Positions 6,001-12,000 of a stretch of 45,892 nucleotides of DNA are shown piece after piece (positions within the stretch are counted from its first letter, which is position 1; every line of letters begins with the position of its first letter). The DNA is from a virus. Lineage: Duplodnaviria; Heunggongvirae; Uroviricota; Caudoviricetes. A program made the position numbers. The stretch lies in the IMG/VR virus record IMGVR_UViG_648276653_000019; one strand, given 5' to 3'.

Positions 6001-9000
6001 ATTTACCTTTCAGAAATCCATCCATCTCAATTAGTGACATTTGTTTCATTTTTTCCCACTCCGCCACATCGCATTCAGATATTTGTTTTGATTTACTGAC
6101 GGAAAAGAATTTCTCTTAAGCAATTCCTCTCTCGATGGCATTGGCTTTACGCGTTGGCGAATAATCATTTCTGCCGGAAGAATGCCGGGATTGTATGCAA
6201 GTCCTCTCATGGTAAATTCCTCAGTCATTACTGATAGCGCCATAGCGTGAGCGGTAATTACGCAGGCGCGGGTCGATATATTCAGGGAAGTGGGTATATG
6301 TGGCTTTGCGGAATGGTCGGATTGATGTCTGGTAAATTCGCTCGCGTTCTTCTTTCTCTGCAAGCCATATACAGTGGCGAAATTCCTTTTCCTCTTTCGT
6401 TTCCTGCGGTAGAGACATTATCCGGTTGTAGTTTTTCCTGAATTTATCCAGCACCTCCGATACGGAATTGCCGGAACAGCGGCGCGGGTCATCCGCACCA
6501 TACAGAGGCGCTGGCATAATGGAATCCTTATGTTGCTAATTTAGAAGGGAATTGAATCGTCGTATTCAGGATGATTTTGATGATTGCTACTTTGTTGCTG
6601 TTGGTTGTTTCCTGAAGTTGCAAATCCAATCTTTGCATTCAGTAATTCAAGAGTGATTGATTGACCATTTTGCCCCTGATAAACATCAACCCTGATGTTT
6701 TCTCCGGTAATTTCTACAATGCCACCTTCAACCAGAACGCTACGGTAGTAATCCGCTTGCGCTCCCGGCTTGGCAAATACAACGGCGCTGTAGTTTGTCC
6801 ATTCTTTCTTTTTTGTCTGGCGATCGTAATACTGAACGCCAGCACGGATGTTGAATCCGATATTTTCCCCGGCCTGAAACTCTCTTGCGGGCTTGTTTAG
6901 TCTTACAGTAATCGAATGTGCCATTAAGCAGCAGCTCCTTCTAATTCGTCTCGTCTGATGTTGTAAACGTCCTGCGCTTTTTGCTGCTCAGGTGTGCCTT
7001 CGAGCATCTTCCACGCTTTGGCGAACGCCTGTTTAAGCTCTTCTACGGTGTTTTTCTGCATTGCTGCGTCAGTGAATGCTTTTAGAACCTGTTCAGGTGT
7101 AGGTGATGGTTTTGATTGCTTTGCTGCTGCGTTCTGCTGATGTTTATGCTCGTCTGTATCTGCATCTTTCGCATCATCAATGCCGAACAAACCATTGAGG
7201 CAATACTTGCGTGCATAAGAGCTTGTAGCTCCAGTAACTTGTGCAGAATCCATTCCTTTCTTGCTTTCTTCCTCTCGTGCAAGAGCGGTTGCCGTATGGC
7301 TGTTTTCGCCATCGGTAATAGTTGCCGTGGCTTTCACGTAATACCGATCACCAATCAACACAACTTCATCGCTGATTGATAAAAACAGACCATTCAGTAA
7401 CGGCTTAACGCCTTCAAGAATATCTTCGCAGCTTCTGTATTTATATTTACCGAATGAGTTGTACTGATTCTTTGGCGCGTTCAGATTCTCCTGAATAGCT
7501 GCCAGTCTTGCGTAAAATTCTTTGCTCATATGATTGTTCTCAGAATGGACACGGCCCAAGGAAATAACGCTGATTTAATACTTCGACTCGGGACAAGTTA
7601 AGGCATACCCGCATTCCTTCGCGGTCGCCATTATGTCGATACCAGAGAGCTTTCTGCGTGTACATGCGCCTCTGTAACTTGCTCTCCTTCACTGTGGTTG
7701 CAAGTGACATGAATATCTCCTTCGTTACCGATTAATTCTTTCATCTGACGAATGAATTCTTCGTCTGACCAGTTATCTGTAAAACTCATTTCCTGCGATA
7801 CCATGGAAGGTTGATAGCTGATTTCATTGCTTTATTTGCTTCAAGCCACATTTTTGAATCACCAATAAATCTGGCTATTACTGCTTTGTTCTGTGCAGCA
7901 CGAAGCATCTGGTGATTGATGGCTATTTCATTGCGCATAATAAGACCTCAACTCTTTTCCATCCGTCACGTAATTTACGGGTGATTCGTTCAAGTAAAGA
8001 TTCATTTAGTTGGAAGGCACCCATGCGAGCGCCTCCCGCGATTGCGTAAATCATGGGTGGTTCCTTATGTTGGTTTTATTAGTAGGTTATTTTTGTTGCG
8101 AATACTTCGCCTTTTACGATGGCTGTTATGATATTTTTAGCAACATCTTCTGGTGCGCCAACCTTGATAAGGTCAGCAAGTATTTTGTTATTTACTTCTT
8201 TCCGGTGAGCTTTATCCTTTGCTCTACGCTCTTCTTCTTCCTTGATTCTTTTTTCTTCTGCTATTCTGGCTTGCTCTTTTGCTTCAGCCTCGCGCCGGAT
8301 TCGTTCAGCCTCCTCCTGTGCTTTTCGGTGTTCTGCTTCAATTGCCGCCTGCTTTTCTCTTTCAGCTCGTTCTGCTGCCTCTTTTGCTTCGCGCTGTGCT
8401 CGTTGCTCGGCTTCAATGCGTTCACGCTCTGCACGTTCCGCTGCGGCCTTAGCTTCTGCTTCTCGCCTTGCTGCTGCTTGAATTTCGGCTTTTGCCTTTG
8501 CTTCGGCTTCTGCTCTGGCTTTCTCTTCAGCTTCTCTTTTTAAGCGTTCTTCATGCTCTCGCTTTTCCTGCTCCGCTTTGAGTCTTGCCTCTTCTCTTTG
8601 GCGGTCAAATTCGCGATCCATCAAAATAGCTATTTCATGGTCAGACTCAATTTGCTTTGCGAGAGCTTCAGCTGCTGCCTTAGCTTCTTCTTCGGCTTTA
8701 ATCCGCGCCTGTTCTTCCTCATAATCAGTAAGAGGCTGGCGCGCCTTGGCTTTCAGTTCATCAAGGCGATCGCGCACTGTCTTGCGGTTGGCATCAATTA
8801 GCTTTGGAATTTCCTTCAGTTCAGCAACAAGGTCTTTGCCAAGACCATCGAGATATGTTTTCGTCTGCGCAACTTTATACGCCAGAGAAGCGATCTCCTT
8901 TCTGCCCTTTGCTGTTGTGATATCAGGCACAAAGGACATAACTTCACGTTCAACCTTTTGAAGGATTTCTTCAATCTGGTCGGCAGACTGAAATACAGTC

Positions 9001-12000
9001 ATTGCATTTGATTTTTCAATAACAACTAAATCTGTTACTTCACTCATATATCCTCCGTCAAAAAATTGCCCTCACACTGGAGGGCAAAGAAGATTTCCAA
9101 TAATCAGAACAAGTCGGCTCCTGTTTAGTTACGAGCGACATTGCTCCGTGTATTCACTCGTTGGAATGAATACACAGTGCTTATTCGTACTAATAAAACA
9201 CCCAGTTTTCTGTTTCTTGGTTGTGTCCAAAGTTATATTCAATATCTGGTGTTGATGTATCAATATTCTTCATCCCATCAACAAGAGTTGATACAACAGC
9301 CAAATCTTGTTTGATTCTCATTAAATGGTATTTCTTCCGGCGCAATAAACTTTCAATGGCAAGTTTCTTCGTTGGGAATGCAAAAGATCTTTCTGCATTT
9401 TTTGCTACTTTCTTAATTGCATATCTATTTCTCTTTTGTTTCCATTCCTGTAACCACTGATTTGGTGCTGGTTTAAAATTAACAATCCAATGCGCAGGAA
9501 CCAACCATGCATAATGCTCTGTCTGATGAAAAGCTATATATTGAAGTGCGAATATTTTTATCCCATCTTCTTCAACTGTCGCCTGGAATCTCCAGAAAAC
9601 AGGCATTCCATCATGTTCAGTTTCTGATTCAGGAAAAGGTACGCTCCATGATTTTGTCATATCTCACCTCAAATAAGTGGTTTGCTGCGAAAGTAAATAC
9701 GCTTAAGTTACCTGTTATTTATCCCACCAAGTTCCGTATCTATCTATCCAGTTACACCAATCATCGACACTCCATTTTGTTGTGTCGCATTTTGGCAACT
9801 GGCATGAATATCTACCTTCTTTGTAAAGTCGGCGTTTGACTTTCTTGAGCATGGCTCACCTCAATCGTAATAAGCTGGAATTGATTTTCCGCGTTGCTTC
9901 TGGCGGCCTGAGCATGTCACACCCATTTCACTGCGTGGCTTGCTGTACCATGTGCGCTGATTCTTGCGCTCAATACGTTGCAGGTTGCTTTCAATCTGTT
10001 CGTGGTATTCAGCCAGCACCGTAAGGTATATCGGATTCAGTGCGCTTTCTACTCGTGATTTCGGTTTGCGATTCAGCGAGAGAATAGGGCGGTTAACTGG
10101 TTTTGCGCTTACCCCAACCAACAGGGGATTTGCTGCTTTCCATTGAGCCTGTTTCTCTGCGCGACGTTCGCGGCGGCGTGTTTGTGCATCCATCTGGATT
10201 CTCCTGTCAGTTAGCTTTGGTGATTGGATGGCCGGCGCTGAACCCCGGCTTACTGGTTAGAGCGCCCGCACTACCAGTGACGCTGTCTTGAGGCGCAGAT
10301 TGGTTACTGCTTGCCATGAGCGCTGTTTATACATTGGTCGAGCATCAGCCTGCTCATTCATCCAATCCCAAAGCCTTCTGCTTTGAATGCTGCCCTTCTT
10401 CAGGGCTAAATTTTTAAGAGCGTCACCTTCATGGTGGTCAGTGCGTCCTGCTGATGTGCTTAGTATCACCGCCAGTGGTATTTATGTCAACACCGCCAGA
10501 GATAATTTATCACCGCAGATGGTTATCTGTATGTTTTTTATATAGATTTATTTTTTGCAGGGTTGTGTGGATTGGGAAGGTGATCGAGAGATCTGAATTG
10601 CGATGTTTAGTGAGTTGTATCTATTAATTTTCAAATAAATACAATTGGTTATGTGTTTTGTGGGCGATCGTGAGGCAAAGAAAACCCGGCGCGGTGGCCG
10701 GGTTTATTTATTGCTTAGGAGCTTGTTGTGATGACGATTGGTTAGTTGGAGCGCTCGTTAATGGTTGCTGTGTCGGTACCTGTATTATAATTGGAGCCGG
10801 GCTGGTTACTGATGGTGACTTGTCATTGCCGGAGATAATCCAACTTGAGGCTAACATCACGCCAGACAGAATCACAGTAACTAAAGTCAAGCCAACGGCC
10901 ATCGCCCACTGAGTCGTTGTAAGTCCCGTTTTCAAACCGCCGATTTCACCTTTAATTTCAGCAATACCTCTCTCAATAGAAGAAAATTGCTGAGTATAAT
11001 AGGTTTTAAAGTCAGCTGATTCGCGACGCATTTCCGCAGCAATAGACTCTACCTCTGATTTGTTTTGTGAAAGCTTTGCGTCAAGTTCTTCTCTGGACAT
11101 TCCGCTCACGCTTACCTCCAGGGTATCACTCTTCATCGCTACATCTTCCTTACTTGGGCGCAAACCCGTTTCGTCCATGGCGTATGAAACTCTATTTGAT
11201 ACCTTAGCATCAATACCAATACTTTGGTACTGAGATGGATCCCCATAAGGAGAAACGGTTGTCGCTGCTAGGGTTGCACTAACTATAATACTTGGAAGAA
11301 CTGATGATGTTGTTCCTGAGGTAGGTTGAACTGAAGAAACTGGCTTCAGTCTTTCCATAGCCCATTATCCCTGAGAGCTACCTGTAATGATTTTACTAAT
11401 GCAACAGCTTGATCCGGGCTCATTGAGACTGACATGTTAGGGGTCAACTCAACTTTTACTTGGAAGCTATTCTTTCCTTGCTCATCAGACTGCATGTGAT
11501 GCTCAAATTCATGGCGGTAAAAAGTAATGATTGTTTCAGCACGATCAGGCGTAATAAGAACTGATGTGGCGGTCATGTGCTGAGGTATGATTTTAATAGT
11601 GTTATCTGACATAAGTATCCTTTTTGTTTCCTTAGTATTTTTTTGCATTGACATCAGAAATAGCGAATCCACAAGAGTATGAGTAAAGCTAATCAGTTTA
11701 GTGATACGGTGACTATTAAAGTGGTAAACCACATCAAAGCTCGCAGAGTGCATACCAGGCTGTCACACATGACAAAGTAACGAGGATGCCTGATCTCATA
11801 GCGCTCAAAGAGACATGCCGATAATGGCATTAACCACGCATGACGCCATAAACACGCCGCCAACGATGAAGCTGGCTTGGTTCTTCCTGGTAGCGCCAAG
11901 AGTCAACAGAACCACTGAAAGGGCAAAAAAAGGTATCGCGATTATGCTGAACGTGTTCATGTTGACCTCAACTTATTTCGATTCTCCATCACCCTTAATC

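Follow-up and report, generated by a model that had tools for sequence, protein, structure and literature searches.

We analyzed the interval between the genes N and cIII in IMG/VR virus record IMGVR_UViG_648276653_000019 (Caudoviricetes), a stretch of 45,892 nucleotides (nt) that is referred to here as the window. Judging by its gene content (a pL operon and a cI repressor gene at 12038-12751), the window represents a lambdoid prophage that has lambda immunity and a recombination module of the P22/HK97 type. The interval carries three open reading frames (ORFs), all on the minus strand like N and cIII, that encode proteins of 45 amino acids (aa; 9715-9852), 156 aa (9190-9660) and 322 aa (8079-9047), the last of them preceded by a 142-nt spacer (9048-9189, minus strand). 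A preliminary description of this DNA had placed the three genes correctly and had held that they are not the ral, sieB and ea10 of lambda, which agrees with a best BLASTP E-value of 1.8 for the three proteins against lambda Ral, SieB and Ea10. We take all three to be real genes because each of them matches a conserved phage family. The novelty that had been claimed for them is lost by the same comparisons: they correspond to Sf6 gene 36, HK97 Gp45 and Sf6 gene 33/phi80 Agt, and the full three-gene arrangement is present in 98 of 5,426 complete E. coli genomes (~2%) and in 7 phage records, with parts of it in 2,262 genomes.

Taken together, the interval is very probably a routine early-left (pL) mosaic of a lambda-immunity prophage, built of four known modules and including a PreS/tL2a block and an Agt-like recombination accessory gene. 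In the order of transcription these modules would be a 45-aa DUF5484 gene (Sf6 gene 36) inserted at the 3' end of N; a 156-aa gene of the HK97 Gp45 type; a non-coding block of ~135 nt, nearly the same as the lambda ral–ea10 spacer, that would specify the Hfq-dependent small RNA (sRNA) PreS/LPR1 and end in the terminator tL2a; and a 322-aa gene of the Agt/Mog type (Sf6 gene 33) with a predicted soluble product.

The Terminator tL2a and the PreS Block

The spacer in front of the 322-aa gene was aligned with the lambda ral–ea10 intergenic region and with phages Sf6, mEp234 and Bas106, and the block proved almost invariant across them. Positions 9060-9181 of the window match lambda at 120 of 121 nt without a gap, the sole difference being the change of a U.G pair in a hairpin stem to U-A. 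That hairpin (9060-9087, minus strand) has an 8-bp stem (9066-9087), a 6-nt loop (CAGUGU), a run of six U residues (9060-9065) and a predicted energy of -13.2 kcal/mol; 12 nt, including a GGAGGA Shine-Dalgarno sequence at 9051-9056, separate the U run from the ATG of the 322-aa gene (9047). A strong terminator at this place had already been proposed, and we accept it as real because it matches lambda tL2a and not because of a generic terminator scan, in which the 6 hairpins found (3.9 +/- 2.1 expected) are alone not above chance. The tL2 terminator cluster of lambda reportedly goes back to Luk and Szybalski. In the GenBank record of Sf6 the same sequence bears the label “terminator, homology to phage lambda; tL2A,” and the mosaic “boundary sequence” bsq4 is placed there as well.

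In lambda, the region between ea10 and ral specifies an Hfq-bound sRNA, LPR1, renamed PreS, that has tL2a as its 3' end and was shown by northern blot, RIL-seq (RNA interaction by ligation and sequencing) and compensatory mutations; it is ~88 nt long and is processed to ~68 nt, pairs with the dnaN mRNA and activates dnaN translation (raising the host sliding clamp DnaN), represses alaS, and promotes phage DNA replication (bioRxiv 10.1101/2024.10.31.621285). Its discoverers, who reported PreS to be conserved in 2,537 genomes (Silverman et al., bioRxiv 10.1101/2024.10.31.621285), count as LPR1 those sequences that have at least 92% identity with few gaps. The window block (120/121, no gaps) lies within that limit, has the GC-rich terminal hairpin and poly-U tail that PreS/LPR1 requires, and occupies the expected place in the pL operon, past nutL and N and ahead of cIII. 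The PreS seed region is unchanged, the only substitution falling in the terminator stem. By its sequence, then, the terminator is lambda tL2a and the putative 3' end of PreS/LPR1, and the block is the most lambda-like and most conserved element of the interval. By analogy with lambda, PreS would occupy 9060-9147 (minus strand; ~88 nt, the 5' end approximate) and its processed form (~68 nt) 9060-9127 (minus strand).

Directly 5' of the likely PreS start there is a second, perfect 14-bp hairpin (9146-9177, minus strand; -18.2 kcal/mol, no U tail), conserved without any change in lambda, Sf6 and Bas106. It could be a processing site or a structural boundary that sets the 5' end of PreS. The block, taken as 143 nt, matches 325 phage records, nearly every record that matches any part of a 1.9-kb query; it thus forms a conserved anchor in the interval, and the cargo to either side of it varies. 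An Rfam scan of positions 7000-11500 at E <= 1 returned nothing relevant, since PreS has no Rfam family. In some phage records a 32-aa “hypothetical protein” is annotated over PreS/tL2a (Bas106_0039, at 3766-3864 of locus L001, and Huey_CDS0034, at 2048-2146 of locus L005), and these ORFs are probably the mis-annotated sRNA. Both of them overlap the start of the 322-aa gene.

The 322-aa Protein and Its Link to Recombination Genes

The 322-aa protein is 98% identical to Sf6 gp33 and matches phrog_1376 (E 2e-109). The family is large, with more than 6,800 matching proteins in the databases. Its conservation is confined to the N-terminal ~110-115 aa and the C-terminal ~40 aa; the charged center is conserved least and differs in length between members (proteins of 245-333 aa). 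In the window gene these parts correspond to an N-domain at 8703-9047, a central helix at ~8208-8702 and a C-domain at 8082-8207 (all minus strand). The protein had been described as an extremely charged coiled coil; the charge is evident (residues 116-280 are 80% E/K/R/A, with 55 opposite-charge pairs at i/i+4 spacing), while the coiled coil finds no support. Residues 116-280 hold only 16 hydrophobic residues in 165 (7 of them in 157-280), and the AlphaFold2 (AF2) model, with a mean predicted local distance difference test score (pLDDT) of 79, has four short N-terminal helices, a single continuous helix over residues 107-295 (189 residues, pLDDT >90 over most of it) and a short C-terminal helix. 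A heptad coiled coil is thus disfavored by the scarce hydrophobics, the E/K/R/A content and the single-helix model, and we infer that the center is a ~165-aa ER/K single alpha-helix that would serve as a spacer. Foldseek searches with the model found only unnamed family members in BFVD and nothing below E 2 in PDB. DUF1351 and Sipho_Gp157 of Gram-positive phages adjoin recombinases, which offers an analogy; a relation to the N-domain was rejected, as neither family was seen at E <= 1-10 with 10 diverse N-domains. On the strand opposite the 322-aa gene runs a 177-aa ORF (8010-8543, plus strand) rich in Phe, Ser, Cys and Leu, almost certainly no gene of its own but the mechanical complement of a coding strand rich in GAA, GCN and AAR codons.

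A tblastn search with the N-domain found PHI80_40 of phage phi80 (GenBank JX871397), which is likewise 322 aa long, shares the three-part architecture, is 51% identical end to end (residues 1-322; BLASTP, E 1e-65) and lies upstream of recombination genes. Its GenBank note reads “agt, anti-toxin for Gam; Mog (modifier of Gam),” the note on gamL reads “toxic without Mog,” and phi80 agt (the Agt, or Mog, of phi80/Lula) is directly upstream of gamL-recT-exo. What comes after the gene in the window, by contrast, is cIII, kil, two small genes, Erf, SSB and Abc2, and an antidote role here would be an analogy. This clear homology to a recombination accessory protein, together with the synteny with recombination genes, runs against the exclusion or host-takeover role that the preliminary description had suggested for the 322-aa gene.

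Erf begins 1.49 kb downstream of the 322-aa start codon in the window, and in nine of nine further lineages the homologue adjoins an Erf, RecT or Bet gene or lies within three small genes of one. The gene orders include homologue, Erf, exonuclease (Pseudomonas JBD44); homologue, Erf, YqaJ, NinB (Sinorhizobium phiLM21); homologue, RecE-like PDDEXK, then an oligonucleotide/oligosaccharide-binding (OB)-fold protein one gene on (Vibrio 1.036.O); homologue, cIII, two small genes, exoVIII, RecT (Yersinia 210.17); RecE, Bet, homologue, RdgC (Iodobacter PLPE); exoVIII, RecT, homologue (Aeromonas ARM81mr); homologue, Erf, YqaJ (Lbo-JY16); and homologue, two small genes, Erf (Klebsiella RCIP0034). We also fetched 80 IMG/VR loci of 322-aa homologues, 75 of them with enough flank, and in 69 of these 75 the same strand carries, 1.2-2.3 kb further downstream, a recognizable gene for a single-strand annealing protein (SSAP; Erf in 58, Bet in 6, RecT in 5). 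The linkage to the recombination module persists while partner types change, in alpha-, beta- and gamma-proteobacterial phages. We conclude that the 322-aa gene probably belongs functionally with the recombination/anti-nuclease module, the phi80 phenotype being one manifestation of this, and that its product is most likely an accessory or modulator of that module and not an envelope or exclusion protein.

The 45-aa Gene and a Probable Duplication of the End of N

The 45-aa gene (Sf6 gene 36, the protein 100% identical to gp36) belongs to Pfam DUF5484 (PF17583), the T4 55.4 family, with 46.7 bits against a gathering cut-off of 27. Its tblastn relatives occur in 1,037 phage records, mostly of T-even-type myoviruses, where the gene is 55.4; homology searches of proteins gave near-identical matches only, the word index being limiting at such short length. 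The protein is basic (pI 9.4) and soluble. An alignment of DUF5484 from lambdoid, T-even, Klebsiella and Erwinia phages shows K6, R7, K11, G13, Y15, P20, T24, W27, W32, I36, D37, G40 and W42 to be invariant, so that of the “Cys/Trp-rich” character first noted for this protein the tryptophans (Trp27, Trp32 and Trp42) are conserved and the three cysteines are not: C17, C22 and C33 are replaced in relatives by L/V, G/R and I. A Cys-ligand metal-binding (zinc) peptide is ruled out for that reason.

The ATG of the 45-aa gene lies 8 nt past the N stop, with the TGA stop inside the Shine-Dalgarno sequence (gat-TGA-GGTGAG-cc-ATG), an arrangement from which the gene is predicted to be translationally coupled to N, as had been proposed. 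The initiation context that it was said to share with the 156-aa gene is also real: the 10-mer TTGAGGTGAG, which contains the strong Shine-Dalgarno sequence GAGGTGA, occurs exactly twice in the window (0.10 expected from shuffles), in each case 2 nt upstream of the start codon of one of these two genes. The second copy belongs to a longer remnant. The 28 nt before the 156-aa start (9661-9688, minus strand) read ..CGC AGC AAA CCA CTT ATT TGA GGTGAGAT, that is, the last codons of N and its stop (..R-S-K-P-L-I-stop) followed by the Shine-Dalgarno sequence GAGGTGAG, and are identical to the N/156-aa junction of phages Huey and 683R2, in which 8 nt separate the end of N (..GSKPLI*) from the 156-aa start. 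The N-to-45-aa spacing in the window is also 8 nt, and the window N (end at 9861-9890) terminates in ...KSIPAYYD, as against ...KSIPLI in lambda. In Bas106 the 45-aa ORF runs through the remnant and ends ..RSKPLI*, giving a 54-aa protein. Judging by these junctions, the 45-aa cassette probably entered an HK97-like arrangement at its N-stop/Shine-Dalgarno junction and duplicated that junction; the shared CTCACCTCAA would then be a Shine-Dalgarno sequence plus a duplicated remnant of the N 3' end and not a shared regulatory device.

The 156-aa Gene

The 156-aa gene is the equivalent of HK97 Gp45 (98.7% protein identity; phrog_1636, E 5e-112), and in H-19B an ORF that follows N, unannotated in the record, encodes a 100% identical protein; the gene is common in Stx1 and Stx2 phages, directly behind N. 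Its close relatives come from Enterobacterales only (33 clusters). A profile search that covered all of 1.8 billion representatives gave 87 remote relatives and contributed ~70 of 130-155 aa that match phrog_1636, phrog_13631 and phrog_25384. Neither these nor the 156-aa protein itself matched any Pfam family, and a sequence search of PDB and fold searches with the 156-aa protein gave no credible match. With a pI of 9.05, the 156-aa protein is basic; it is also Trp-rich and soluble, and a beta-hairpin N-terminal half and a long basic C-terminal helix (RRKKYHLMRIKQ) are predicted for it. Its AF2 model is poor (pLDDT 58.5). An AP2 or lambda Int arm fold for the motif RFAFxTKEEA was rejected, with hhalign probabilities <1% against both, and multi-domain matches of the family (P0179, P0201) were set aside as repeat or low-complexity artefacts.

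Five remote relatives were viewed in their contexts, which are various early-region positions in unrelated phages with no constant partner. In one (L014, 3004-4444) the gene immediately before the relative is of the AAA_24 (Sak4-like) kind, and two genes beyond it, again upstream, comes a DUF3799 (RecE-like) gene; in another (L008, 1-4450) it is near RecT and DUF3799 genes, those on the opposite strand. Their nearness to recombination genes in these two of five cases may simply reflect an early-region location. A nucleic-acid- or protein-binding early regulator or effector is the most likely class for the 156-aa protein, a placement that we make with low confidence.

Mosaic Arrangement and Comparison With Other Phages

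The block around tL2a has the same place in the pL operon as in lambda, after a ral-type slot and before an ea10-type slot and cIII, with both the U-tailed hairpin and the upstream hairpin retained; the window differs in having the Gp45-like gene in the place of ral upstream and the Agt-like gene in that of ea10 downstream. With lambda ral, sieB and ea10 the window genes share their operon positions relative to N, tL2a and cIII and their predicted standing as N-dependent delayed-early genes. Sf6 (record AF547987, in the annotation of Casjens et al., 2004, our source for genes 36 and 33) shares the N-to-gene-36 coupling and the tL2a block before gene 33, but from gene 36 to tL2a its genes are ral and gene 34, where the window has the HK97 Gp45-type gene. 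HK97 and H-19B share that gene (98.7-100% protein identity), which there, too, is located after N and before the tL2a block. No gene separates it from N in HK97, Huey and 683R2, whereas in the window the 45-aa cassette is interposed; HK97 is without an Agt-like gene.

Across phages, the contents of the slot comprise ral, sieB, ea10, P22 gp17-like, Sf6 gp34, Bas106 gp40/41, Nmad5 and DUF7446 genes. In three IMG/VR loci (L036, L069 and L090) the PreS block and the Agt-like gene are separated by ea10, and in seven others (L039-L042, L044, L063 and L064) by a P22 gp17-like gene. Since ea10 and gp17-like genes co-occur with the Agt-like gene, they are separate cassettes, and the Agt-like gene is not an allele of ea10; the slot after tL2a accepts stacked cassettes. 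One of these loci, L090, combines sieB, ral, ea10, the Agt-like gene, cIII and lambda Gam, Bet and Exo.

Operon Signals and Neighboring Genes

Upstream of the interval, the window has an exact 29-nt match to lambda pL (10462-10490, minus strand; TTGACA-17-GATACT, scored 10/12 in a promoter scan) and a nutL region (10392-10422, minus strand) with exact matches to lambda boxA (CGCTCTTA, 10415-10422) and boxB (GCCCTGAAGAAGGGC, 10392-10406), followed by a lambda-type N antiterminator gene (9861-10193, minus strand; Pfam N36, E 3.9e-26, and comparison with lambda and Huey N). These signals favor the view, already put forward in the preliminary description, that expression beyond the terminator should need N. 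The promoter scan of the coding strand from N to the 322-aa gene found no promoter-like site, and the genes behind pL are therefore predicted to be silent in the lysogen.

Downstream, on the minus strand and in one operon with the genes of the interval (6221-8054), lie cIII (7923-8054; Pfam Lambda_CIII), kil (7786-7938; Pfam Lambda_Kil), two small ORFs like HK97 gp42.1 and gp42 (7631-7804 and 7540-7710; PHROGs), Erf (6924-7559; Pfam ERF), an SSB-like gene (6541-6924; PHROGs) and the anti-RecBCD gene Abc2 (6221-6517; Pfam Anti-RecBCD_p2). The G+C content of the 45-aa gene is 40% and that of the 156-aa gene 36%, against 51% in N and 50% in the window, which is consistent with imported cargo.

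Discussion

All of the elements described above are already in the databases, each module being known from lambda, HK97, H-19B, Sf6, phi80 or T4. If they act as their counterparts in lambda do, pL would fire upon induction, and pL transcripts not modified by N would stop at tL2a and yield PreS, which would pair with the dnaN mRNA and so provide more host sliding clamp for phage replication; once N is loaded at nutL, polymerase would pass tL2a and transcribe the Agt-like gene, cIII, kil and the Erf/SSB/Abc2 module.

Several points weigh against this interpretation or limit its reach. The function of PreS is known from lambda alone, by way of a preprint, and is carried over to this prophage by analogy; likewise, the Agt annotation comes from a GenBank note on one phage, and the model of the 322-aa N-domain is of modest confidence (pLDDT 42-78). 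Downstream of the 322-aa gene the window has Abc2 and no homologue of GamL or Gam, and over the 75 IMG/VR loci the anti-RecBCD partner varies (Abc2 in 51, GamL in 4, lambda Gam in 2, none seen in 18). Part of the synteny within lambdoid operons is inherited, and close relatives (at least 95% identical in the N-domain) make up 56 of the 80 loci, so that the IMG/VR counts overstate independence.

As a rival to a mosaic of known modules, we weighed whether the N–cIII slot might be a cargo hotspot in which the three genes carry novel superinfection-exclusion, restriction-alleviation or host-takeover (anti-defense) functions in place of ral, sieB and ea10. The slot is clearly variable across phages, and the 45-aa and 156-aa genes, besides having the low G+C content often seen in imported cargo, are without an assigned function; it is for these two alone that such a role, claimed earlier for the interval as a whole as a second hotspot, could still hold, and evidence for it was not found. 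Scans of the three proteins against Pfam, NCBIfam and PADLOC gave DUF5484 only, the NCBIfam and PADLOC matches (best PADLOC E 0.0097) being judged noise; there is no homology to ral, sieB or ea10, none of the three proteins has a hydrophobic or membrane segment of the kind found in SieB, and the 322-aa gene goes with the recombination module and not with cargo. Genes that are silent behind pL would allow no lysogen-expressed exclusion unless they had a promoter of their own, which the scan did not find, and the 45-aa family is also found in over 1,000 genomes, most of them of virulent T-even-type phages, which argues against an exclusion role specific to lysogeny. We therefore consider new exclusion or takeover functions unlikely. 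Quite improbable, too, is the reading of the 9060-9087 hairpin as a terminator and nothing else, the block being a recombination “boundary sequence” that has no sRNA function here: the Sf6 annotators did read it as bsq4 plus a terminator, differing cargo joins it at both sides and it has no Rfam match, but near-perfect conservation over 121 nt in hundreds of mosaic phages exceeds what a terminator needs, and the nearly identical lambda sequence was shown by experiment to give an Hfq-bound sRNA with validated targets (bioRxiv 10.1101/2024.10.31.621285).

For the 322-aa protein, the name “cell envelope biogenesis protein TolA,” which NCBI gives to most family members, would imply an envelope function, and its Ala/Glu/Lys/Arg-rich center does resemble TolA domain II in composition, as a long, highly charged helical region. 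The protein nevertheless has no transmembrane anchor (the maximum 19-residue Kyte-Doolittle value is 0.99, within the C-domain), no Pfam TolA domain III either over its full length (E <= 0.1) or in its termini (E <= 10), and no substantial NCBIfam match; the conserved N- and C-domains are unrelated to TolA while the TolA-like center is the least conserved part, and it is predicted to be a cytoplasmic phage early protein. A TolA-like envelope protein is accordingly most improbable, and the name is an annotation artefact that reflects compositional likeness only. It is also hard to credit that the protein is a specific antidote to a toxic Gam-type RecBCD inhibitor, as phi80 Agt is said to be, and has no wider role. 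The wording of the phi80 record speaks for this, as do four IMG/VR loci with 60-62% identical homologues in which GamL is immediately downstream and two (L090 and L100) that have lambda Gam. But the window and most relatives have Abc2 or no recognizable anti-RecBCD gene, and the homologues of JBD44, phiLM21, PLPE and ARM81mr adjoin SSAP or exonuclease genes without a Gam-type gene; as the partner varies in this way, a GamL-specific antidote cannot be the general function.

We would venture, as a tentative possibility, that the Agt/Sf6-gp33 family is a widespread and overlooked fourth component of phage recombination modules and acts as a two-headed adaptor, and, separately, that the Gp45 family is a new early host-directed effector. 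Agt would then stand beside the annealing protein, the exonuclease or SSB and the anti-RecBCD protein, with its N- and C-domains held ~25 nm apart on the ER/K helix, and would tune the activity or toxicity of anti-nuclease and annealing proteins, serving whichever anti-RecBCD type the phage has (GamL, Gam, Abc2 or none).

Two practical consequences concern annotation. PreS is routinely missed in prophages, since it has no Rfam model and in some records is covered by a spurious 32-aa ORF; and the name “TolA,” carried by thousands of prophage proteins, hides a family tied to phage recombination modules. The HK97-Gp45 family, widespread in Shiga-toxin phages directly behind N, is worth experiment, as is the biochemical role of Agt.

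Between pL and cI, in the place of lambda rexA/rexB and probably at what the preliminary description counted as its first hotspot, the window has three further minus-strand ORFs: one of 216 aa (10708-11358) with a C-terminal hydrophobic segment, an overlapping one of 135 aa (11346-11753), and a hydrophobic one of 51 aa (11805-11960). None of them matches Pfam or PADLOC, and by their position and character they are candidates for a lysogen-expressed exclusion or defense locus.

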